NCBI GenBank assembly: GCA_027317185.1
Contig: DAHVFB010000001.1
Coordinates: forward strand, 35,954 to 99,953
Origin: Deltaproteobacteria bacterium
Lineage (GTDB): Bacteria > Desulfobacterota > Binatia > Binatales > Binataceae
DNA length: 64,000 nucleotides
Direction of reading: 5' to 3'
Part shown: positions 11,343 to 33,510 of the stretch, in pieces
Position numbering within the stretch: position 1 is the stretch's first letter
Layout: each line of letters opens with the position of its first letter
Translations under genes and position numbers: made by a program
The notes under the pieces: generated by a model
The model's database searches: none
What the model was told of the DNA's origin: nothing
Seen by the model: the letters and a program-made list of their open reading frames with translations, nothing else

Positions 11343-12149
11343 ATGTCCGAACTGAAGAAAATCCAGCAGTTGATCTATGCCCTTGTCGCGCGACCAACGA
11401 CGATCGCCGGCGCCAACGATTTCGGCCCCGGCGCCATTGACTCCGTAATCGCTGGCGATGAAAAACTGCGGGCCGCCAGGCGCATCCAGATCTACGCCGA
11501 TGCTTACTTTGCCCGGCTGCTCGGAATTATGAAAGAAGATTTCCCGGCGGTGCTGAAACTGGCCGGCGAGAGAACTTTCACGAAATGGATAGACGATTAC
11601 CTGATGGAGCATGCGCCCGCCGATCCCTCGATTTTTCCGCTCGGGCGCAACTTCGCCGGTTTTCTCGCTGATCGTTGCGATATCGACGACACCGCTGAGT
11701 ATCCTTTTATCGCCGAACTGGCGGCGCTCGAACGCGCGACTATCGAGGTCTTTCACGGGCCCGAAGCCGAGACGCTCACGGCCGCCGCGATGCGCTCCAT
11801 ACCGGCCGCACAATGGGCCGCGATCGAGCTGCGTACCCATCCGGCTTTGCAGATGCTCGATTGCCGATGGGCGGTGGACGAACTGCTGCGGATGATCACG
11901 AACGCCGAGCCGTGGCATCAACCGGATTTCCGCCCGATCGGTCTCGTGGTATGGCGCGAGCAATCGCAGGTCTATTATCGGCGGCTCGAGCCCGGCGAAC
12001 GCAGTGGGCTCGAAATCGCAAGGCATGGCGCGACTTTCGCTACCCTATGCGAAGCGGCGAGCGCGGAAATCGAAGGCGACGCGGTGGCCGCAATCAACCG
12101 GATGCTCGCGCGATGGCTGGCCGACGGATTGATAGTGAAAACCAGCTAA
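11343..12149 (+). CDS. Hypothetical protein (possibly DUF2063-like putative DNA-binding protein)
   Basis: 268-aa ORF with good coding texture. No motif recognised with certainty. Confidence 0.35.
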
Positions 12150-12709
12150 GACCGGCTTGCCGGATTCGGCCACGGACGCTCGTGATCGCGCAAATATACG
12201 CCGCTGCGGCCGCCGCTTTTGCTGATCAACCGGACCGCATCGATCGTCATGCCACGGTCGATCGCCTTCGCCATGTCGTAGATTGCGAGCGCCGCCGCGC
12301 TGACCGCCACCATCGCTTCCATCTCGACTCCAGTACGGGCGATCGTGACTGCGCGGGCCTGAATCTCAATCGCGGCCGGCTGTTCAGCGGGCCGGAAGTC
12401 GACCTCGACCAGTTCGAGCGGTAGCTGATGGCATAGCGGAATCAATTCGTGGGTGCGCTTGGCCGCCATGATGCCTGCCACTCGCGCCACCGCGAGCGCT
12501 TCGCCTTTTTTGAGCTGGCCGCCGATGATTGCTTTGAGGGTCGCCGATTGCATCGCGATTCGTCCGCGCGCGACCGCCTCGCGCCGCGTTATCGGTTTAG
12601 CGCCGACATCGACCATCCTGACGCGCCCTTGATCGTCGAGATGGGTAAGTTTCGGCACGCCGCGCGACGCTCTGCCGGAACTGCGTGAATTTGATTTTCC
12701 CGAGGCCAT
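12146..12709 (-). CDS. moaC: Cyclic pyranopterin monophosphate synthase MoaC
   Basis: Strong match to MoaC (MVDVGAKP...[11 protein letters not shown]...TGVEMEAM...IYDMAKA...SGGRSG). Start moved to ATG 12709 (GGGAG SD). The track's longer N-terminus is translated from a repeat element. Confidence 0.85.
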
Positions 12710-12734
12710 CGGAACTCCCAGGGAAGCTCTGCAT

Positions 12735-12835
12735 CCCATGCTGTCATTCTGAGGGCAGCGAAGAACCCCGGGATTCTTCACGTCACGGACTCGGTTCAGA
12801 ATGACAACCCGGCATGTGCAGGGATTCCCTGCCGC
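12735..12835. repeat. Structured inverted-repeat element in the moaC 5' leader (TGTCATTCTGA ... TCAGAATGACA with nested GAAGAA/TTCTTC and GCAGGGA/TCCCTGC palindromes)
   Basis: 11-bp perfect inverted repeat at 12741-12751 / 12794-12804 with nested palindromes. Translates to the [18 protein letters not shown]-type pseudo-peptide typical of dispersed hairpin repeats. Partial copy (cgtcattctgaatc) at 17632. Confidence 0.45.
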
Positions 12836-12919: not shown

Positions 12920-13861
12920 ATGACAGAAGAGATTTATCGCCTTGCGATTCTTGGCTCCGGCCCCGCGGGACTGACCGCGGCCCTCTATAGCGCGCGCGCG
13001 AACCTCGCGCCGGTCCTGATTGAAGGAGGCGAACCGGGCGGACAGCTCACGATTACGACCGAGGTCGAGAATTATCCCGGCTTCGAGCATGGCATCCAGG
13101 GTCCGGAAATGATGGAGGTGTTTCGGCGTCAGGCGGCGCGTTTCGGAACCAAATTCATCACCGGAGTCGCAACCGCGGCGGCCTTGAAAAAGCGGCCGAT
13201 CGAAATAACGCTCGACGAGGGCAAGGTGTTGCGCACCCATGCGCTGATCATTTCAACCGGCGCTTCCGCCAAGCTGCTTGGATTGCCGGCCGAGAAACAT
13301 CTGATGGGCTATGGCGTGAGCGCCTGCGCCACCTGCGATGGCGCGTTTTTCAAAGATCGCAACGTGATCGTGGTTGGCGGCGGCGACACCGCGATGGAAG
13401 AAGCGCTGTTTCTCACGCGCTTTTCGCCGAAGGTCAGCGTAGTGCATCGGCGTGACCAGCTTCGCGCCTCGAAGATTATGCAGGAACGCGCGCGCGCTAA
13501 TCCCCGGATCGGCTTTGTCTGGAATTCCGCGGTCGAAGATATCCATGGCGATCAGAAAGGCGGCGTGGTGGCCGTGACCTTGCGTAACCTCGAGACCGGC
13601 GAGTCGAGCCGGATGCCGACCGACGCGGTTTTCGTCGCCATCGGCCATCAACCAAACACCGGTATCTTCCGCGGCCAGCTTGAGATGGACGAACTCGACT
13701 ATCTAAAGGTGAAACCGGGCTCGACCTTCACCAATATCGATGGTGTCTTCGCGGCGGGTGATGTCGCGGATCGAGTCTATCGACAGGCGGTGACGGCGGC
13801 GGGCACCGGCTGCATGGCGGCGTTGGACGCCGAGCGATGGCTGGAAGCGCATCATCTCTAA
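12920..13861 (+). CDS. trxB: Thioredoxin-disulfide reductase
   Basis: 313 aa. FAD motif GSGPAG, redox-active CATCDG, NADPH motif GGGDTA. Confidence 0.92.
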   Translation: MTEEIYRLAILGSGPAGLTAALYSARANLAPVLIEGGEPGGQLTITTEVENYPGFEHGIQGPEMMEVFRRQAARFGTKFITGVATAAALKKRPIEITLDEGKVLRTHALIISTGASAKLLGLPAEKHLMGYGVSACATCDGAFFKDRNVIVVGGGDTAMEEALFLTRFSPKVSVVHRRDQLRASKIMQERARANPRIGFVWNSAVEDIHGDQKGGVVAVTLRNLETGESSRMPTDAVFVAIGHQPNTGIFRGQLEMDELDYLKVKPGSTFTNIDGVFAAGDVADRVYRQAVTAAGTGCMAALDAERWLEAHHL

Positions 13862-13896: not shown

Positions 13897-14970
13897 CTAG
13901 ACCAGCCTGACCGGATAAGCGCCGGCGGTTTCGACGCGGCCGACGATCGCGGCCTCGACAATCCCCGCCGCCTGCAGGTCGGAGAGCAGCGCGAGCGAAT
14001 CCTTTTGCGGCAATGCGATCAACAGTCCACCCGAAGTCTGCGGGTCGAATGCGATCTCGACCATCGCGTCAATCACTTCTTCTGCTATAGCGAGGCGCGG
14101 GCCAAAGAATTCGCGATTGCGCTTGCCGCCGCCGGGGATCATCCCGGCGCTGATCGCATCGAGCGCGCCCGGCAGCAGGGGCAGATCCGATTCCTCGATC
14201 GCCAGCGTGACACCGCTGCCCTCCGCCATCTGCATCGCATGTCCAATCAGGCTGAAGCCGGTGATGTCGGTGGCGGCATGAACCGCATAACGGAGCATCG
14301 CGGCGGCCGCGTCGGAATTGAGCGCCGCCATGATTGCGACCGCGGTGGCATAGTGATCTTCGGGTAGCCGATCGCGCTTGAACGCGGTCATCAGGACGCC
14401 GGTGCCGAGTGGCTTGGTGAGGATCAGTGCATCGCCCGGCTGCGCACCGACATTACGCACGATGCGCCGCGGATCGATCACACCGGTCACCGCCATGCCG
14501 TATTTAACTTCCTCGTCCGCCACGCTGTGCCCGCCCACGATCATGGCGCCAGCCTCGCGCACCTTTTCGGCGCCGCCGCGCAGAATTTCGCCCAGCATCT
14601 CGGCCGGCAAACCGGTTTGCGGCCAGCAAACGATATTGAGCGCGGTCAGTGGCCGCCCGCCCATCGCGTATACATCGGACAGCGCGTTGGCGGCGGAAAT
14701 TTGACCGTAGGTGAATGGATCGTCAACCACCGGCGTAAAAAAATCGACGGTGTTGACGATTGCGAGGTGATCGGAAAGACGATACACACCGGCGTCGTCG
14801 CCCGTTCCGATTCCCACCAGGAGATCGGGATGGCTACCAAGATCGAGCTGCCCGAGCACTGCTTTGAGGTCCGCCGGACCCAGCTTGCCGGCTCAGCCGG
14901 CCGCTTTACAGCGCGCCGTGAGCCGAATCAGATCTTCACGCCCGGCGTTATTGTCCTTCGCCTTCATCAT
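13897..14970 (-). CDS. selD: Selenide, water dikinase SelD, predicted selenoprotein (in-frame UGA = Sec at 14893-14895)
   Basis: Track ORFs 13897..14859 and 14893..15108 are the same frame separated only by TGA. Joined reading MMKAKDNNAGREDLIRLTARCKAAG-U-AGKLGPADLKAVL matches the SelD active-site region (H. influenzae [22 protein letters not shown]). GC hairpin GGUCC-GGC-GGACC starts 12 nt after the UGA. selB is adjacent. Confidence 0.8.
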
Positions 14971-15019
14971 GACCTTGCCGCGATGACTTATCGGATTGTG
15001 GCACGCGGCGCATTTTATT

Positions 15020-16951
15020 TCAGCCCTGATGCGAGCGCAGCCGGCGCGCATCGCCAACCCGCGTGGTGACGCCGGTATGATCGAAAAAATCCAGCAGGGC
15101 AATCGCAAATTTACGCGACGCGCCGAGCAAATCGCGATAGCCGGCGGCGGTAATTTCAGGGTTGCCGTTAAGATATTTAAGCAGCCGGGCGCGGGCGTCC
15201 TCGAGGCGTGGACGATCGAAATAGAGGTCGGTCGCGATCTTGACCACTTTCCCTTCGCGCTCGAGCGCGGCCAGCAGGGTCCGCAGGCGTCCGGTCTCCG
15301 AGGCCGGAAGCTTAAGCTCTTCCGCCAACTGCTTGAGTTCCGGCGGATGGAATCCCGCCGCCGCCAGCACCTGTTCGATTCGCGCGCCGACGCGGCTGTC
15401 GTCGCCGCCGAGCTTCACCCGGTGCGACTTGAGCCGCAGGAGGTTGTCCTCCCGAACCAGGTCCGATTCGCGTCCCAGCCGATCGATCACCGCGCGGAAA
15501 TTTCGCGCGGCGATCTCGTATGGAAGCTGTGCGCGCATCGCTTCCATCTCCATGCCCGGCGAAAGCGGCTCCGCCTGATGATGGGCCGCGATCGCGCCAA
15601 GCGCGGATTTTTTCAGCTCCTCCCATTTGGTCCGGGTAGTGAAGCCTTCTTCGTCGCCGAGCGAAAGTTTAATGAAACGGGTGTCGCGCAGCGCTTCCTC
15701 GACCTCGGCCACGGGGGCGTTGAGCATCAGCGCGGTATGTAATCTGGTGACCGCGAAACTATCCTGCAGATTGAGCAGGGCCTCGATCGCAAGCGGACCG
15801 CTGCGATCGCGAATCGCCAGCAGCCGTTCGCGGTAGAGTTCGACCGGTTTGCGCGAGCGGCGGCCCAATGGATTCAGCACGCGCCCGCCGCCCAGCGTCC
15901 GCCGGCTGGTTTCGTCGCGGACCACGAATTTATCGCCGGTCAGAGCCACCACCGGATCGTTGAGCACCAACTGGACCAAGCCACCGCTTTTGACCGGAAT
16001 CTGCCCCGCGGATTCGATTACGATCGCGCGCGCCATAGTCTCACTGGTGCCGATATAAAATCGCAAGCGCTGGTTATTGCGAATCGCGTGTTTCGCGGCC
16101 GGGCGCACCTCCAGCCACGCATCGAGGCGGGAGGTCACGATCTCGAGCCGCTCATCGGCCAGCACGTCGCCGCGTTTAAGTTCAATTCGCTCCGCGCCGG
16201 AGAGATTCAGCGCCACCCGCTGGCACAGTCCCGCACTCTCAACCGGCTCCGAATGCACCTGAATTGCGCGGACGCGGACCTCGCCGCCGCCGGGCAGGAC
16301 GCGCAGCTTCTGTCCCAGCTTGACCGAGGCGCCCATCGCGGTGCCGGTCACCACGGTGCCATGGCCCTTGATCACGAACGCACGATCCAATGGCAGGCGA
16401 AACAATCCGGTGGCGCGGCGCGACTCGAAACCATCGAGCTGGCGCGAGATTTCGGCTTTGAGCTGATCGATCCCGGCCCCGGTCAGCGAGGAAACCGGAA
16501 TCACTGGGGCATCGGCCAGCGCAGTGCCGTCGGTCAAAAGGCCGATTTCCTCACGTACCTCGTCGAGCCGCCGGGCATCGGCCAGATCGGACTTGGTGAT
16601 CACGAAGATGCCACGACCGGCGCCGAGCAGATGCAAAATATCGAGATGCTCTTCGCTCTGCGGCATCACGCCGTCGTCGGCGGCCACCGTAAACAACACC
16701 AGATCGATTCCATGCGCACCCGCCAGCATATTGCGGATGAAGCGCTCGTGGCCGGGGACATCGACGATACCGGCCCGCATGCCATCGGGCAGCGTAAAGT
16801 AGGCGAAGCCCAGATCGATCGAGATCCCGCGTTCCTTCTCTTCCTTGAGACGATCGGTTTCCTGACCGGTAAGCGCCCGCACCAGGGCGGTCTTGCCGTG
16901 GTCGATATGTCCTGCGGTGCCGATTATCGCATGGGCTACTGAAGAGGCCAT
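15020..16951 (-). CDS. selB: Selenocysteine-specific elongation factor SelB
   Basis: 643 aa. GTPase domain (GHIDHGKT, DVPGHERF, TKSD) plus long C-terminal winged-helix extension typical of SelB. Confidence 0.85.
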   Translation of the reverse strand: MASSVAHAIIGTAGHIDHGKTALVRALTGQETDRLKEEKERGISIDLGFAYFTLPDGMRAGIVDVPGHERFIRNMLAGAHGIDLVLFTVAADDGVMPQSEEHLDILHLLGAGRGIFVITKSDLADARRLDEVREEIGLLTDGTALADAPVIPVSSLTGAGIDQLKAEISRQLDGFESRRATGLFRLPLDRAFVIKGHGTVVTGTAMGASVKLGQKLRVLPGGGEVRVRAIQVHSEPVESAGLCQRVALNLSGAERIELKRGDVLADERLEIVTSRLDAWLEVRPAAKHAIRNNQRLRFYIGTSETMARAIVIESAGQIPVKSGGLVQLVLNDPVVALTGDKFVVRDETSRRTLGGGRVLNPLGRRSRKPVELYRERLLAIRDRSGPLAIEALLNLQDSFAVTRLHTALMLNAPVAEVEEALRDTRFIKLSLGDEEGFTTRTKWEELKKSALGAIAAHHQAEPLSPGMEMEAMRAQLPYEIAARNFRAVIDRLGRESDLVREDNLLRLKSHRVKLGGDDSRVGARIEQVLAAAGFHPPELKQLAEELKLPASETGRLRTLLAALEREGKVVKIATDLYFDRPRLEDARARLLKYLNGNPEITAAGYRDLLGASRKFAIALLDFFDHTGVTTRVGDARRLRSHQG

Positions 16952-17709: not shown

Positions 17710-18375
17710 CTACATTGCCCCGGCAGCCCAAACTACACGGCCGGCGATCTTCACCAGCCCGGCGGAAACCGTGACCGCAGAATAGGCAGGGTTGTCACTG
17801 CGAATCCCCAGCGCCGTCCCACCGCGCTCACGCTGCACGCGCTTTACCACCAAATCGCTGCCGTCGAGCAACACGTACAAGCCGTCAACCACGGCCCGAG
17901 TCTGCCGCAAATCGGCCAGCACCAGGTCGCCCTCCGCCAGCGTCGGCGTCATCGAATCGCCAATCACGTCAAGCAACATCAAGCACTTGGGATCGATCGC
18001 CAACCGGCCTCGCAGCCAGTGGGATCGAAAGGCGAGCACGTCGGTAATCTGCGAACTGCGCAGGCGCGATCGGCCACGTGAGCCGGTTCGAACTTCGCTG
18101 CTCGATAAAAATGTAAAATCGTCGTAAGCGGCTCCTTGCGATCCAAGGTTATTGACCAGTTCCCGGCCGGTTGCGAGCCACTCGACCGACACTCCGGCGG
18201 CGCGCGCAAGCGCCACCAGGCTCGCGAGATTCGGTTGCCCTCGTCCCGCGATCCATTTGTAGACCGCGTTATCGGACACCCCGATCGTTCGCGCCAGTTC
18301 GGCCACGCCCACAAACTGCCGCACGATCGTTTTCAGCCGATCACTAAACAGTCCCTCTTCTACTATGGTTGACAT
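17710..18375 (-). CDS. Phage CI/LexA-like repressor (HTH_XRE plus S24 peptidase)
   Basis: 221 aa. N-terminal HTH (LARTIGVSDNAVYKWIAGRGQP). C-terminal S24 with Ser (GDSMTPTL) and Lys (VVKRV) dyad. Confidence 0.75.
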   Translation of the reverse strand: MSTIVEEGLFSDRLKTIVRQFVGVAELARTIGVSDNAVYKWIAGRGQPNLASLVALARAAGVSVEWLATGRELVNNLGSQGAAYDDFTFLSSSEVRTGSRGRSRLRSSQITDVLAFRSHWLRGRLAIDPKCLMLLDVIGDSMTPTLAEGDLVLADLRQTRAVVDGLYVLLDGSDLVVKRVQRERGGTALGIRSDNPAYSAVTVSAGLVKIAGRVVWAAGAM

Positions 18376-23096: not shown

Positions 23097-24629
23097 ATGA
23101 CCCCGCAAACCGACAAACTTTCAATTCTGCTTCCGTATCAAAGCCGCTGGATTGCCGATCCGGCGCAGGTCAAGGTGTGCGAAAAATCACGCCGCGTGGG
23201 TATCACCTGGACCGAAGCGGCCGATGCGGCGCTGGCGGCCGCCAGTCAGCGCGGCAGCGACACCTGGTATATCGGCTACAACAAGGACATGGCGCTGGAG
23301 TTCGTGTGGACCGCCGCCGAATGGGCGAAACGGTTCAATCGCGCCGCCCGCGAACTCGAGGAAATCGCGATCAACGACGAGGATCGCGACATCCTCGCCT
23401 ATCGTATCCGCTTCGCCTCGGGCCACAAGATTACGGCGCTGTCGTCGCGTCCTTCCAACCTGCGCGGCAAGGACGGGCGCGCGGTGATCGACGAGGCCGC
23501 CTTCCACGACGATCTCGCAGGCCTGATGAAGGCGGCGCTGGCCTTCACCATGTGGGGCGGCAAAGTGCGCGTGATTTCCACCCACAACGGCGCGGGCAGC
23601 GCCTTCAACGAACTGGTGAGCGACGTTCGCGCCGGGCGGCTCAACTATTCGCTGCATCGAATCGCCTTCGACGAAGCGATCGCGCAGGGCCTGTTCCGCA
23701 AAATCTGCGAACGCAACGATCGCGAATGGAGCGCGGCGGCCGAGCGCGCGTGGCGCGACGAGATCGTCGACTTCTATGGCGACAACTGCGACGAGGAGCT
23801 GTTCTGTACTCCGCGCGCCAACTCCGGCGCCTATCTGTCGACGCCGCTGATCGAAAGCCGGATGCGATCAGCCAGTCCAGTGGTGCGCTGGGCGATGCCG
23901 GCGGAGTTCGCCGGCGAACGGGATGAGATCCGATCCAAGATCGCGCTGGATTTCTGCCGCGAACAACTCGATCCGGCAATCGCGCTGCTCGACCCTTCGT
24001 TGATGAGCTGCTTCGGCGAAGATTTCGGACGCAGCGGCGACCTGACGGTTATCTGGCCGCTTCAGATCGAGGCGCGCCTGACGCGCCGCACGCCGTTCGC
24101 GGTCGAGCTGCGCAACATCCCGTTCCGTCAGCAGGAGCAGATTTTGTTTTATATCGTTGATCGCCTGCCGCGTTTTTTCGCCGGTGCGATGGACGCGCGC
24201 GGCAACGGGCAATACCTGGCGGAAATCGCAATGCAGCGCTACGGCAATCGGATCAAGCAGGTGATGCTGTCGGCCGAGTGGTACCGCGAGCAGATGCCGC
24301 GCTACAAGGCGGCCTTCGAGGACGGCACGATCGAGCTGCCCAAGGACGACGGCATTTTGTCGGACCATCGATCGCTGGTGATGGAGCGCGGGGTGGTGAA
24401 AGTGATGGAACGCCGCGAACGCGACGCCACCGGCGGACGCCATGGCGATTCGGCGATCGCCGGAGCGCTGGCCTGGTTCGCCTCCTATCAGGACGCCGTC
24501 GAATATGACTATGCGCCGATTTCGCGGGTCGCGGCGCGGGCGCTGGAACATGACATGTCAAATCGCGCCGGTGCGTCCGAGGATGCGTTGTCGGATCGCA
24601 GCCGCCGCTTCGGCATGGGCGCGTGGTGA
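23097..24629 (+). CDS. Terminase large subunit (Mu gp28-like)
   Basis: 511 aa from ATG 23097. ATPase plus nuclease layout, conserved VIDEAAFHDD and STHNGAGS regions. The track's N-extension comes from the preceding gene's frame. Confidence 0.8.
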   Translation: MTPQTDKLSILLPYQSRWIADPAQVKVCEKSRRVGITWTEAADAALAAASQRGSDTWYIGYNKDMALEFVWTAAEWAKRFNRAARELEEIAINDEDRDILAYRIRFASGHKITALSSRPSNLRGKDGRAVIDEAAFHDDLAGLMKAALAFTMWGGKVRVISTHNGAGSAFNELVSDVRAGRLNYSLHRIAFDEAIAQGLFRKICERNDREWSAAAERAWRDEIVDFYGDNCDEELFCTPRANSGAYLSTPLIESRMRSASPVVRWAMPAEFAGERDEIRSKIALDFCREQLDPAIALLDPSLMSCFGEDFGRSGDLTVIWPLQIEARLTRRTPFAVELRNIPFRQQEQILFYIVDRLPRFFAGAMDARGNGQYLAEIAMQRYGNRIKQVMLSAEWYREQMPRYKAAFEDGTIELPKDDGILSDHRSLVMERGVVKVMERRERDATGGRHGDSAIAGALAWFASYQDAVEYDYAPISRVAARALEHDMSNRAGASEDALSDRSRRFGMGAW

Positions 24630-24688
24630 GCGCGATGGTTATCGATCGACAGCCCTTCACTCCCCAGTGCTTATTTCTCTCAGCGTCC

Positions 24689-24724
24689 GACCTCTCCCTG
24701 ACCCTCTCCTTGGACAAGGAGAGG
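24689..24724. repeat. REP-like palindromic repeat (same family as 3517-3630)
   Basis: cctctccctgaccctctccttggacaaggagaggg. Sits in the leader of the portal gene and is translated as PLPDPLLGQGEG in the track's over-extended ORF 24442..26130. Confidence 0.55.
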
Positions 24725-24750
24725 GCTTCGGAAGCTCACGGAGTAAGCGA

Positions 24751-26130
24751 ATGAAGCTATACGACGCGTATGGGCGAGCGGTAGACACCGGGCGCCTGCG
24801 TGAAGAACAGGCCGCGCCGACCTTCGCCGGCATCCGCAATATCTACTCCGTGATGCATCCGTCGGCCGGACTGACGCCCGAGCGCCTGTCCGCGATCTTG
24901 CGCGAAGCTGAGTCCGGCGATCCATATCTGTACCTCGAACTGGCCGAGGAGATGGAGGAAAAGGACCTGCACTACCTGGCCGTGCTCGCCACCCGCAAGC
25001 AATCGGTGGCCCAGCTCGACATGGTGATTCGACCGGCTTCGAGCGCGTCCGAGGACCTGAAGATCGCCGCGATGGTGCGCGAGGTGCTGCTCGACGGCAC
25101 GCTGGCGATGGAAGCGTTCCTGTTCGACAGCCTCGATGCGATCGGCAAGGGCTTTTCGGCGGTCGAAATAATCTGGGATACCGCCGGACGCACCTGGGTT
25201 CCACAGCGCCTGGTATGGCGCGATCCGCGCTGGTTTCTGTTCGATTGGATCAATGGCGAAACGCTGAGGGTACGCACGCTCGACGCGAGCGACCGCGAGT
25301 CGGAACTCGAGCCCGATCGCAGCAGCCATTTCCAGGGATCGGGCGCCGGTGCTCGATCGGGACTGCAACCGTTCACCGAACCCCTCCTGCCATACAAGTT
25401 CATCGTACATATCGCCAAGGCCAAGGCCGGACTGCCGATTCGGGGCGGGCTGGCGCGTGCGGCCGGCTGGTCGTACCTGTTCAAGAATTATGTGCTCAAG
25501 GATTGGGTCACCTACACCGAAGTTTTCGGCCAGCCTTTGCGGGTGGGCAAATATGGACCGGGCGCGACTGAGAACGACAAGCAGGTTTTACTCGATGCGG
25601 TGACCAATATAGGCAGCGACGCCGGTGCGATTATTCCGGACTCGATGGTGATCGAGTTCACGGAAGCGCGCCAGCAGGGCAGTATCGAGCTCTACGAAAA
25701 CTTCTGCGCCTACCTCGATCGCCAAGTCAGCAAGGCGGTGCTGGGACAGACGCTGACCACCGAGATGCCGCGCGAAGGTGGATCGCGCGCGGCCGCCCAG
25801 GTTCATCAGGCGGTGCGCCGCGACATCCTAAGCGCCGACGCCCGGCGGCTGGCCGCCACGATCACTCAGGATTTAATTAGACCGATTGTCGATCTGAATT
25901 TCGGGCCGCGCCCGCGCTATCCGCAATTCACGCTGGCCTTGCCCGAGGATCAGGACCTCAAGGTGTTTGCCGACATCATTGCAGAACTCGCCGACCGCGG
26001 GCTGCGCATCAGTCAGAAGACGGTGCTCGACAAGCTTGGATTGCCCGAGCCGCAGGCGGGAGAGCCGCTGCTGGAATCGATGCGCAATACGTCCGCCTCC
26101 GCCACCGCCGATCAGTCGCGCAAAGCATGA
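24751..26130 (+). CDS. Portal protein (Mu gp29 / DUF935 family)
   Basis: 459 aa from ATG 24751 (GGAG SD). N-terminal MKLYDAYGRAV...IRNIYSVMHPSAGLTPERLSAILREAESGD typical of Mu-type portals. Confidence 0.8.
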   Translation: MKLYDAYGRAVDTGRLREEQAAPTFAGIRNIYSVMHPSAGLTPERLSAILREAESGDPYLYLELAEEMEEKDLHYLAVLATRKQSVAQLDMVIRPASSASEDLKIAAMVREVLLDGTLAMEAFLFDSLDAIGKGFSAVEIIWDTAGRTWVPQRLVWRDPRWFLFDWINGETLRVRTLDASDRESELEPDRSSHFQGSGAGARSGLQPFTEPLLPYKFIVHIAKAKAGLPIRGGLARAAGWSYLFKNYVLKDWVTYTEVFGQPLRVGKYGPGATENDKQVLLDAVTNIGSDAGAIIPDSMVIEFTEARQQGSIELYENFCAYLDRQVSKAVLGQTLTTEMPREGGSRAAAQVHQAVRRDILSADARRLAATITQDLIRPIVDLNFGPRPRYPQFTLALPEDQDLKVFADIIAELADRGLRISQKTVLDKLGLPEPQAGEPLLESMRNTSASATADQSRKA

Positions 26131-29143: not shown

Positions 29144-30412
29144 TCAGGGCAGGATGGTCGCGGTATGGCCGAAGCGCGCGTTGTTCATCGAAGAAATCAG
29201 GCTGAAACTGTTGAAACCGGAACTGTAAATCTCCGCCGTATTGACCGCGCTGGCGGCGTTCAAGCCGTTCAGGCCGTCCTGGCCACCGGTAATCAGCGCC
29301 ATCCCGGCCAGCGGACCGCTGCTGAACGCGGTCGCGGTGTGATAGCGCCGGAAATCCGTCATATTGCCGGTCGGCCCGAAGGCTCCGCCCGGATTGTAGA
29401 GTTCCGCGGTATAGGTCAGCGTGTTGCCGCTGGTCAGCCCGCCGCATAGCAGCACCAGACCGTTTTGCAGGATCGCGGAAGCGAACTGCATGCGGCTGAT
29501 GGTCATCAGGCCCGCCGCGGCGAACGAATTGGAGGCGGGATTGTACAACTCGGCGGTCGAGGTGATCACGCCCGCGTTATCCTGGCCACCAGCCAGCATC
29601 ACCTGCCCATTGAGCACGCCTCCGGAGAAAAAGATCGCGTTGTCGAAGAAGCGGCTGTCTTGCATCAGGTTTGTGATGTTCGTGAATTTCTGGGTGGTGG
29701 GATTATAGAGTTCGGCCTCGTTCTGCACGGCGGTCATCGCGGAGTTCGCGAAACCGCCCGCGATCAGCACCTGGCCGTTGGTGAGCAGCGTCGCGGTATG
29801 TGCCGCGCGCGGGAAATGCATCGGCGCGGGAGTGGCGGTGAATTTATCGGTAGCTGGATCGTACAATTCTGCACTGGCCAACGGATTTCCGTTCGCATCG
29901 ATGCCGCCGGTGATCAAAACCATCCCGTTATTGAGCAAGGTGGCAGTATGCAGCGCGCGAACGGAGGTCATGCTGGCGGCGATCGGATGGAACAACTGAT
30001 TTTTTTCGTTGAACAACTCCGCCGATTTCAGCGTAGTCCCGTTGCCGTCCTGCCCACCGGTAACCAGAATGGCGCCGCTGTGCAGGATGGTCGCGGTATG
30101 AAACGCGCGCGCCGCGTTGAGCGAATTAGTGGTGGTAAAGGTCTGGGTGGTTGGATTGAAGAGTTCGGCCTGCGCAACCGCCGCGCTGCTGGCATTGATA
30201 CCGCCGACGATGAGGACATCGCCTGAGAGCGGACCCGGAGTGGCAGTGCCGCTCGAGGTCGGCGTACCGCTGCTGCTACTGGTCACCTCGACCGCGCCGA
30301 AGCCGGGACCGCAGCCCTGCCCCACCATCGCCAGCCAGCCGAAGGTCACCAGCGCCGCGGCCGCCAACAGGATATTTCGTATCGTCGCTAGTAATCCGGC
30401 CGTGCGCTTCAT
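29144..30412 (-). CDS. Kelch-repeat lipoprotein (cargo)
   Basis: Start at MKRTAGLL (GGAGGGGG SD) with lipobox GQGCG. Five or more Kelch motifs (FHTATLL..G.VLITGG). The track N-extension is rejected. Confidence 0.7.
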   Translation of the reverse strand: MKRTAGLLATIRNILLAAAALVTFGWLAMVGQGCGPGFGAVEVTSSSSGTPTSSGTATPGPLSGDVLIVGGINASSAAVAQAELFNPTTQTFTTTNSLNAARAFHTATILHSGAILVTGGQDGNGTTLKSAELFNEKNQLFHPIAASMTSVRALHTATLLNNGMVLITGGIDANGNPLASAELYDPATDKFTATPAPMHFPRAAHTATLLTNGQVLIAGGFANSAMTAVQNEAELYNPTTQKFTNITNLMQDSRFFDNAIFFSGGVLNGQVMLAGGQDNAGVITSTAELYNPASNSFAAAGLMTISRMQFASAILQNGLVLLCGGLTSGNTLTYTAELYNPGGAFGPTGNMTDFRRYHTATAFSSGPLAGMALITGGQDGLNGLNAASAVNTAEIYSSGFNSFSLISSMNNARFGHTATILP

Positions 30413-30613
30413 GCCCCCTCCAATCTGCAAGCTCTCCACGAAGGCTACGGCTATAACATAGCCCAAAGGCCCACGAAACGAGTTGCAAAATAGTGAATTA
30501 TTCTGCGCTTTGAAAATGCAGTCGCCGGCGCGCCCCATCCTGCTCGTGCTGCTCGTGGCATACCGGCCCGGACTGCGGTAATTTGGAATCGCAGGTACGG
30601 GGATGGCAGTCAT

Positions 30614-32172: not shown

Positions 32173-32265
32173 GCAATGAGAGAGGGTGGCCCGGATCGTA
32201 AAGGACCTGTCGGAATTCGACCGCGTATAGAGATGGCAGTACGCGCGGCGTGCGACCCAGGTAAG

Positions 32266-33510
32266 ATGAAAATGGCAGCCAAAACGCTTTTCACCAACGC
32301 TAACCTGGTTCTGGACGGATTCACGGAACTCCAAAAATCGTTCGACGTGCTGGTCCACGATAACCGCATAATTGCGGTGTCGCAAACGCCGCTGGCTCAT
32401 GAAGATGCAAAAGTGATCGATATTCGCGGCAGGACGCTGATGCCGGGTCTTATCGATGCGCATGCGCATATAACGGGACTGTCGCTGAGCCCGAAAAACA
32501 TCGCCTACCCGGCCTCCGAAATTGCCATCGCCGCCGCCAATTATCTGCGCTGCAGCCTGATGGACGGTTTCACCTCGATCAGAGAAGCGGGCGGCGCCGA
32601 CCACGGCGTCGCCCGCCTGCTGGCCGAAGGGAAAATCATTGGGCCACGAATGTTCTACTCGGGGCGCGCGCTAACGCAGACCGGCGGAGGCGCAGACTTT
32701 CGCTCTCCCGATGAGGTCCTGGATCCGTGTGGTCACACCGGTCCGTTTACGGTGATGTCCGTGATCGCCGATGGAATTGACGAGGTGCGCAAGGCCGCGC
32801 GTGAAGAACTGCGCCGGGGCGCGGCGCAAATAAAAGTATTCGTCTCCGGTGGAGTGGTGTTTCCATCGGAAGCTCATCCAACTATTTACGAATACTCATT
32901 GGAAGAATTGCGCGCGATTGTGGAAGAGGCGAACGGCCGCGGCACCTACGTCATGGCCCACGTCTATACCGATGAGGGAGTTCGCCGGTGTTTAACCGCC
33001 GGCGTCCGATCTATCGAACATGCCAATTTCGTCAGCGAAGAAACGGTCGCCATGATGGCCCGGCACGGAGTCTACCTCGATCCGACCTTCATATCGCTCG
33101 TGCAACGAATCGAGTCAGCGGCCGAAACCGGGCTGCCAAACAATATCGTTGACAATTTGAAGACGACGGTGGCGAGGGGCCAGCAAGTCTACCGCTGGGC
33201 GAAGCGCTACCAGGTGCCAATCGCTTTCGGGACCGACCTATGGGGTCCAGAGGCGCAAACGTCGCAGCTCAGAGAATTTGAAATGCGAATGGAGCTCGAC
33301 GATGCGCCCGGTATCATTGCTTCAGCCACCCGCATCAATGCCGGGTTGCTAATGCAGAACGGCAACCTGGGAACCATTTCTCCCGGAGCCTACGCCGACC
33401 TCTTGGTCGTCGAAGGAGACCCCTTGAGCGACCTGAGGGTCATGACCGATCCTCAGAAGAATCTTAAGCTGATCATGAAGGACGGCGTAATCTACAAGAA
33501 CGAGATCTGA
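32266..33510 (+). CDS. Amidohydrolase-family metal-dependent hydrolase (cargo)
   Basis: GLIDAHAHI metal-binding motif, TIM-barrel amidohydrolase layout. Start at ATG 32266 (MKMAAK). Confidence 0.7.
   Translation: MKMAAKTLFTNANLVLDGFTELQKSFDVLVHDNRIIAVSQTPLAHEDAKVIDIRGRTLMPGLIDAHAHITGLSLSPKNIAYPASEIAIAAANYLRCSLMDGFTSIREAGGADHGVARLLAEGKIIGPRMFYSGRALTQTGGGADFRSPDEVLDPCGHTGPFTVMSVIADGIDEVRKAAREELRRGAAQIKVFVSGGVVFPSEAHPTIYEYSLEELRAIVEEANGRGTYVMAHVYTDEGVRRCLTAGVRSIEHANFVSEETVAMMARHGVYLDPTFISLVQRIESAAETGLPNNIVDNLKTTVARGQQVYRWAKRYQVPIAFGTDLWGPEAQTSQLREFEMRMELDDAPGIIASATRINAGLLMQNGNLGTISPGAYADLLVVEGDPLSDLRVMTDPQKNLKLIMKDGVIYKNEI

Follow-up and report, generated by a model that had tools for sequence, protein, structure and literature searches.

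A selD gene with an in-frame UGA beside selB in an uncultured Candidatus Binataceae bacterium: a predicted selenocysteine-containing selenophosphate synthetase and its candidate SECIS hairpin

The stretch of DNA analyzed here, which we refer to as the window in the following, comprises 64,000 nucleotides (nt) from an uncultured Candidatus Binataceae bacterium (GCA_027317185.1, contig DAHVFB010000001.1, positions 35,954 to 99,953). On its minus strand, it carries two adjacent genes of selenium metabolism, namely selB, encoding a selenocysteine-specific elongation factor (15020–16951), and selD, encoding a selenophosphate synthetase (13897–14970). As delimited by its translation and by profile matches, the selD coding sequence consists of 357 codons and a TAG stop, and codon 26 is an in-frame UGA (14893–14895). 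Given its alignment to a catalytic cysteine of known SelD proteins and the codons that relatives use at this position, the UGA is the putative site of a catalytic selenocysteine (Sec). Shortly downstream, a small hairpin (14868–14880) within the coding sequence is a candidate for the selenocysteine insertion sequence (SECIS).

The TGA is in frame with both a 71-codon open reading frame (ORF) upstream of it and an ORF of 320 amino acids (aa) downstream of it (13897–14859). Translated across the TGA, the sequence reads ...IRLTARCKAAG-*-AGKLGPADLKAVL... or, over a longer section, MMKAKDNNAGREDLIRLTARCKAAG-*-AGKLGPADLKAVLGQL..., and from position 14970 (ATG ATG AAG GCG AAG GAC AAT AAC ...) a single frame leads to the terminal TAG. 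Since full-length homologs begin with MSKAKDNN... or MSKPKDNN..., the start codon is, by the match to these N-termini, the ATG at 14970 or the next ATG at 14967. The sequence AAGG at 14973–14976, which precedes the first ATG by 2 nt and the second by 5 nt, is a possible ribosome-binding site.

To score the joined product against profiles, the stop was replaced by cysteine. It matches the TIGR00476 equivalog with 388.5 bits (cut-off 125), with residues 16–323 covering profile positions 1–309 of 311, and NF002098 with 334.9 bits (cut-off 299), and it contains the Pfam domains AIRS (PF00586, 93.6 bits) and AIRS_C (PF02769, 61.3 bits). Likewise, query residues 12–325 align with Escherichia coli SelD (3u0o) at E = 4.8e-73. 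Judging from these matches, the joined product is a full-length SelD (selenide, water dikinase or selenophosphate synthetase), with the ATP-dependent synthesis of selenophosphate from selenide as its predicted activity. In the alignment, AAG-[UGA]-AGKLGP is found opposite GAG-C-GCKISP of 3u0o, which places the UGA in the column of Cys17 and a lysine at position +3. The same column holds the cysteine of SSG-C-AAKVGP in Aquifex aeolicus SelD (2yye). We take the catalytic Sec/Cys and the lysine three residues further on to be represented by Cys17 and Lys20 in E. coli SelD.

The neighboring selB gene encodes a protein of 643 aa and is intact, lies on the same strand and is separated by 49 nt from the ATG of selD downstream. 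Its product matches TIGR00475 with 365.5 bits (cut-off 242) over profile positions 2–580 of 581, and features the Pfam domains GTP_EFTU, Beta-barrel_SelB, SelB-wing_2 and SelB-wing_3, the latter two being winged-helix domains that bind the SECIS. In agreement with this, an identical protein, MBF6569092.1, is labeled by NCBI as selenocysteine-specific elongation factor of a Candidatus Binataceae bacterium. The original prediction, which was based on the letters of the window alone, had already described selD as split by a TGA into two pieces of one frame, with the junction RLTARCKAAG-[UGA]-AGKLGP at the Sec/Cys position of the SelD active site and with selB immediately upstream. The joined 357-codon translation, the alignments and the arrangement of the two genes bear out each of these points. 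By contrast, the upper gene limit of 15108 given there is wrong, as this position is merely the first TTG of a mechanically delimited ORF and falls within the 3' end of selB.

How the position of the UGA is used elsewhere was assessed in two sets of sequences: a cross-phylum set of 80 genome loci derived from the family alignment, 70 of which contain the motif, and a close set of 91 Binataceae-level loci, which represent 71 distinct sequences. Across phyla, 58 of the 70 motif-bearing loci have TGA at this position and the other 12 TGC or TGT, and the TGA-type loci come from Binatia, Acidobacteriota, Chloroflexota, Clostridia, Desulfobacterota, Geobacter and others. In the close set, TGA is found in 64 of the distinct sequences and TGC in seven. 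The same pairing of Sec and Cys is apparent in protein databases, where 12 full-length homologs among the best 120 hits (66–75% identity) have RLTARCKAAG-x-AGKLGP in common, with a cysteine as x in ten of them. Homologs with cysteine in the UGA column are 67–75% identical to the window protein, and their sequence context (RLTARCKAAG-C-AGKLGPADL) is near-identical.

The DNA of the close relatives also speaks for translation through this site. Over the ten codons that precede the UGA, the residues are kept while synonymous sites vary, with three codons in use for Arg-10, five for Leu-9 and four for Thr-8; this segment is thus translated in the same frame and is under purifying selection. Furthermore, of the 37 window genes with Pfam support, 14 have TGA as their stop codon, selB among them, which means that UGA is not reassigned genome-wide and that the code is standard. 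Taken together, the gene calls, the Sec/Cys pairing, the DNA of the relatives, the selection on the upstream segment and the genetic code exclude a pseudogene, a sequencing error and a genome-wide reassignment of UGA. On this basis, the UGA almost certainly encodes the catalytic selenocysteine, and we hold with high confidence that the window contains a Sec-containing selD of an uncultured Candidatus Binataceae bacterium whose UGA is decoded as Sec with the aid of the adjacent selB.

The presence of selB follows the type of selD. In most TGA-type relatives with enough flanking sequence, as in the window, it immediately precedes selD, whereas no selB was detected in the upstream flank examined (1.5–5 kb) at any of the Cys-type loci (L009, L094, L099, L103, L113, L123 and L144). 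This suggests that the replacement of Sec by Cys is accompanied by the loss or relocation of selB, a pattern that would fit a joint loss of the trait. Other arrangements are encountered in more distant lineages, which, unlike the window, have a selA-selB-selD cluster, as seen in a Binatia and a Syntrophobacteraceae metagenome-assembled genome (L010 1519–2985 and L011 1424–2824), or a gene for the selenocysteine tRNA (tRNA-Sec) beside selD, as seen immediately upstream of selD in a Vicinamibacterales genome (L012 4717–4813).

The in-frame UGA has consequences for annotation. Among the best 120 database homologs, 108 are fragments of 308–328 aa, corresponding to 85–92% of the query; these include P0001, an exact 320-aa fragment that constitutes the database copy of the window selD. 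The expectation that automated gene callers would truncate the gene is therefore borne out by P0001 itself and by 107 further fragments. In public collections, the window selD and more than 100 of its close relatives thus appear as fragments without the catalytic loop, and since the gene calls are fragments, metabolic reconstructions of Binataceae will miss both a functional SelD and the Sec-decoding trait.

The candidate SECIS is the hairpin GGUCC-GGC-GGACC (GGUCCGGCGGACC; 14868–14880, minus strand), which is formed by the codons of Gly-Pro-Ala-Asp-Leu. It begins 12 nt past the UGA, and its loop begins 17 nt past it. We compared it with the constraints of the bacterial SECIS (bSECIS) model as quoted in PMC13188914. 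According to this model, the apical loop comprises 3–9 nt and the upper stem 4–16 base pairs (bp), at least one of the first two loop positions is a G, usually in the form of G followed by G or U, the distance from the UGA to the apical loop is 16–37 nt, and the free energy is no higher than -7.5 kcal/mol (PMC13188914). The window hairpin has a loop of 3 nt (GGC) and a stem of 5 bp, or 6 bp if a flanking G-U pair is included; its loop sequence follows the G rule, being GGC in the window and either GGC or GGA in each of the 64 TGA-type relatives; and the distance of 17 nt results from a 12-nt spacer and a 5-nt arm. The energy amounts to -10.7 kcal/mol for the region from the UGA to +34, and as the bare 15-nt hairpin yields -7.4 kcal/mol, the limit is reached only with flanking pairs. 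In a 170-nt context, the pairing probability of the hairpin is 0.78. The earlier proposal of a GC hairpin 12 nt 3' of the UGA as SECIS candidate is consistent with these values, which fall within all four published constraints, and with the constraint on synonymous sites described below. A lower stem, GCU...AGC, which appears in the window's own fold, was rejected after inspection of the alignment, as it is not conserved among relatives. No second exact copy of the hairpin, sought as a marker of other selenoprotein genes that this SelB might serve, was found in the 64 kb window.

Every one of the 64 TGA-type sequences in the close set preserves the hairpin, with no variation at its synonymous sites other than wobbles. 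Gly+5 is encoded by GGT in 64 of 64 sequences, even though GGT accounts for only 14% of glycine codons in the window genes, and the use of CCG for Pro+6 and of G as the third base of codon +7 is equally without exception. Where the stem does vary, pairing is retained: Asp+8 is GAC in 62 sequences and GAT in two, and the first base of Leu+9 is C in 63 and T in one, with a G-U pair in either case. The sole residue change under the hairpin, from Ala+7 to Glu, touches only the middle base of the loop. Neighboring synonymous sites, by contrast, are free to vary, with six codons in use for Leu+4 and three for Gly+2. A different picture emerges for the Cys-type relatives, five out of seven of which keep the GPADL residues but encode them with GGG or GGC, and GCC, so that the pairing is destroyed.

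Comparison across phyla, for which 59 TGA-type sequences were aligned over the hairpin, reveals several versions of the same helix: GGUCC/GGACC in Binataceae, GGGCC/GGCCC in L015 and L072, GGCCC/GGGCC in Geobacter (L052, L076) and GGACC/GGUCC in L063 and L073. The variable central pair is formed by the wobble base of the glycine codon and the middle base of codon +8 (14878 and 14870 on the minus strand of the window; alignment columns 18 and 26) and occurs as UA in 22, GC in 8, CG in 3 and AU in 2 sequences. Its covariation score of 0.222, compared with a mean of 0.150 for shuffled alignments, was reached by none of 500 shuffles and is the highest of all slid registers. The complete 5-bp helix is found in this register at 19 of the 58 TGA-type loci and at one of the 12 Cys-type loci. 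The hairpin is not universal, however, as the best candidate in some other lineages is located about 33 nt downstream. Since this pair links the third position of the glycine codon to codon +8, the residue at the latter (Asp, Ala, Gly or Val) tracks a synonymous site; judging from this covariation, an RNA structure is shaping a residue of the SelD protein across phyla. In view of its spacing, its fit to the model, the constraint among relatives and the cross-phylum covariation, GGUCC-GGC-GGACC is very probably the SECIS of this selD.

Several observations weigh against the interpretation of this locus as a Sec-decoding selD with its own SECIS. Neither tRNA-Sec nor SelA was found in the window: ARAGORN detected no tRNA and Rfam gave no match at gathering thresholds in the 64 kb, and a scan of all six frames for the SelA pyridoxal phosphate (PLP) motif was negative. 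Both methods are nevertheless functional, since tRNA-Sec was found in L012 and SelA beside selB-selD in L010 and L011, the SelA scan having recovered this protein in 16 other loci altogether. We assume that selA and selC are located elsewhere in the genome, and the view that the organism decodes Sec draws on selB and on the conservation of the UGA. With regard to the hairpin, the sequence around the UGA, taken as 71 nt or 131 nt, has no advantage in folding over its dinucleotide-shuffled versions (z = 0.09 and -1.07). As shuffled sequences fold equally well, folding energy carries no weight at 61% G+C, and the support for the hairpin consequently comes from the comparison between sequences and not from thermodynamics. 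No Rfam SECIS model fits the region, and as a permissive Rfam scan of 14780–14960 gave only one chance match to an sRNA (E = 6.5), there is no usable Rfam model for this bacterial SECIS. In the Binataceae set, we found no compensatory double change, and the hairpin also encodes the conserved GPADL residues; because the stem is invariant in these sequences apart from wobbles, the evidence was taken from synonymous sites, from the contrast with Cys-type genes and from the cross-phylum alignment. Finally, two Cys-type genes, which look recently derived, and one Trp-type gene retain an intact hairpin, and the five Cys-type sequences without it probably form one clade and thus amount to roughly one event.

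Three other explanations of the UGA codon have to be considered. If selD were a pseudogene, or if the TGA were a nonsense mutation or a miscalled base in the assembly, one would understand why gene callers stop at this position and why the database copy is a 320-aa fragment; decay does occur in this family, as exemplified by one widespread relative with TGG at this site and altered conserved motifs. Yet an accident of this kind is very hard to reconcile with a TGA that recurs in 64 distinct sequences from close relatives and at 58 genome loci of many phyla, with purifying selection on both halves in one frame, and with the score of the remainder as a full-length SelD, and we consider it highly improbable. 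Hardly any more credence can be given to the idea that the functional protein is the 320-aa product, with the 25 upstream codons forming a leader or a separate small peptide. This ORF (13897–14859) is indeed the one delimited by a mechanical ORF search and in public gene calls, and a start at a methionine codon at 14859 had been named as an outcome that would speak against a selenoprotein. The codon at 14859 is, however, GTG, and the shorter SelD is to be rejected because it lacks the whole catalytic loop with the catalytic Sec/Cys and the lysine (E. coli residues 1–25). Moreover, the upstream codons are conserved in their amino acids while synonymous sites vary, and full-length Cys-type homologs align across all 357 residues. 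A third idea, that the UGA is read as a different residue, for instance Trp, Cys or Gly, through near-cognate suppression or an altered code, could point to the relative with Trp (TGG) at this site and to the absence of selA and selC from the window. It is very unlikely nonetheless: TGA terminates more than a third of the well-supported window genes, the UGA occupies the known catalytic Sec/Cys site, and a dedicated, intact selB is adjacent, which is co-conserved with TGA-type but not with Cys-type genes.

A fourth alternative concerns the hairpin only. The Sec codon may be real and the hairpin a by-product of the GPADL codons, in which case the true SECIS would be another or a larger structure. 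This would account for the lack of compensatory changes in the close set, for the insignificant energy z-scores, for the persistence of the hairpin in the two Cys-type genes and the Trp-type gene, and for the Sec-type lineages whose best candidate is located about 33 nt downstream. Such a by-product, however, would not be expected to fix a rare glycine codon and the other synonymous sites of the stem in 64 TGA-type sequences while the flanks vary, nor to become relaxed at precisely these sites in the diverged Cys-type clade. Four different Watson-Crick pairs at the center of the helix across phyla, a covariation that exceeds all 500 shuffles and all slid registers, and the agreement with the four bSECIS constraints argue in the same direction. 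We therefore regard this alternative as improbable, albeit as one to be kept in mind.

If the locus is a Sec-decoding selD, as we propose, its expression could proceed as follows. selB and, immediately downstream, selD are probably co-transcribed, and translation of selD would begin at the ATG at 14970 or 14967. At codon 26, SelB carrying Sec-tRNA(Sec) would decode the UGA as selenocysteine instead of it being read as a stop; presumably, SelB is recruited by binding to the mRNA hairpin GGUCC-GGC-GGACC, whose apical loop follows 17 nt after the UGA. The Sec thus inserted would reside in the N-terminal glycine-rich loop (..CKAAG-U-AGK..) at the position of the catalytic Cys17, with the essential lysine at +3. 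The resulting SelD would make selenophosphate, the selenium donor for the synthesis of Sec-tRNA, and since selenophosphate feeds Sec-tRNA synthesis in the known pathway, full-length SelD would need its own product. This indicates that these bacteria, which are widespread in soil and peat, use selenium and require it to make the very enzyme that activates it.

Sec-containing SelD proteins have long been known, for example from Haemophilus influenzae and A. aeolicus, and the window selD is an ordinary member of this family. FdhA and SelD are the bacterial selenoproteins with the widest distribution, every Sec-decoding bacterium without FdhA has a Sec-containing SelD, and the bacteria listed with such a SelD include Deltaproteobacteria and Clostridia (PMC1794560). 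SelD has also been described as the second largest prokaryotic selenoprotein family, with the Sec in an N-terminal flexible loop (PMC13188914). As a selenium-dependent SelD is thus already well described in other bacteria, the main value of the present finding lies in the correction of the annotation. For the host lineage, the Binataceae, we found no paper in the literature that mentions the use of selenocysteine.

The window gene has the UGA at the catalytic loop position, the lysine at +3 and a SECIS-like hairpin just downstream within the coding sequence in common with other Sec-containing SelD genes, and its AAG-U-AGKLGP is close to SSG-C-AAKVGP of the solved A. aeolicus chain. It differs from them in its host, an uncultured Binataceae bacterium with 61% G+C, in its hairpin, which with a stem of 5–6 bp and a loop of 3 nt is near the lower size limit that the model permits, and in an invariant cysteine five residues before the Sec. 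This Cys21 (C-KAAG-U; 14908–14910, minus strand) is conserved in all 71 Binataceae-level sequences but is not present in most other lineages, in which Val or Ser is frequent at this position, and its thiol may serve to resolve a selenenylsulfide. With E. coli SelD (3u0o), the window protein shares the catalytic loop, the lysine and the AIRS and AIRS_C domains, but E. coli has a cysteine where the window gene has the UGA, and because of this cysteine, its SelD can be made without a SECIS and without its own product. The SECIS of E. coli fdhF is about 40 nt in length. Like it, and like the bSECIS model in general, the window hairpin is a stem-loop within the ORF past the UGA, with GG opening a small apical loop; unlike it, the window hairpin is much shorter and has no evident bulged U and no conserved lower stem.

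These comparisons lead us to a broader, tentative idea. GGNCC-GGN-GGN'CC over Gly-Pro-x-x-Leu might be a SelD-specific SECIS that is shared across phyla and dictates a downstream residue of the protein, and SelD might be the main or only selenoprotein of Binataceae and as such uphold the Sec machinery. We consider this possible but rather doubtful.

Some further observations were made in the course of the analysis. The consensus of the 64 TGA-type sequences obtained with RNAalifold weakly suggests another small hairpin, GCCGGC-UGA-GCCGGC (14887–14901, minus strand), in which the UGA is located in the loop. The codons flanking the UGA are near-fixed in these sequences (GGT at -1 in 62 of 64, GCC at +1 in 61 of 64), and no compensatory change was found among them for this hairpin.

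The Trp-type SelD, P0021, is a Binatia homolog with TGG at the Sec/Cys codon (L161 3001–4074, codon 3076–3078; GCA_003152635.1, PMAR01000064.1). It is widespread, being found in 68 blocks of the collection, and its hairpin (ggtccggcggacc) is still intact. At its locus, L161, an ABC transporter gene and no selB is located upstream, and its conserved motifs are altered, among others from TDITGF to TGIAGF. Judging by these features, P0021 looks like a decaying or repurposed SelD that derives from a TGA-type ancestor. A further protein, P0057, resembles it.

Downstream of selD, trxB (thioredoxin reductase; 12920–13861, plus strand) converges on it with a gap of 35 nt and is followed by moaC (12146–12781, minus strand). 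The linkage of these two genes to selD looks coincidental, as neither adjoins selD in any relative examined. On the other side, a gene set of a Mu-like tailed prophage (17710–49280) begins about 760 nt beyond selB. It comprises a CI-like repressor with helix-turn-helix and S24 domains (17710–18375, minus strand), a GH108 endolysin, a Mu portal protein (24442–26130), Mu protease I, the major head protein gpT, a tail sheath protein, GpU, the gpD hub, baseplate protein J, P2 tail protein I and a tail fibre. Genes that do not appear phage-like are found inside it as well, encoding a Kelch-repeat protein (29144–30613), a methyltransferase and an amidohydrolase (32176–33510).

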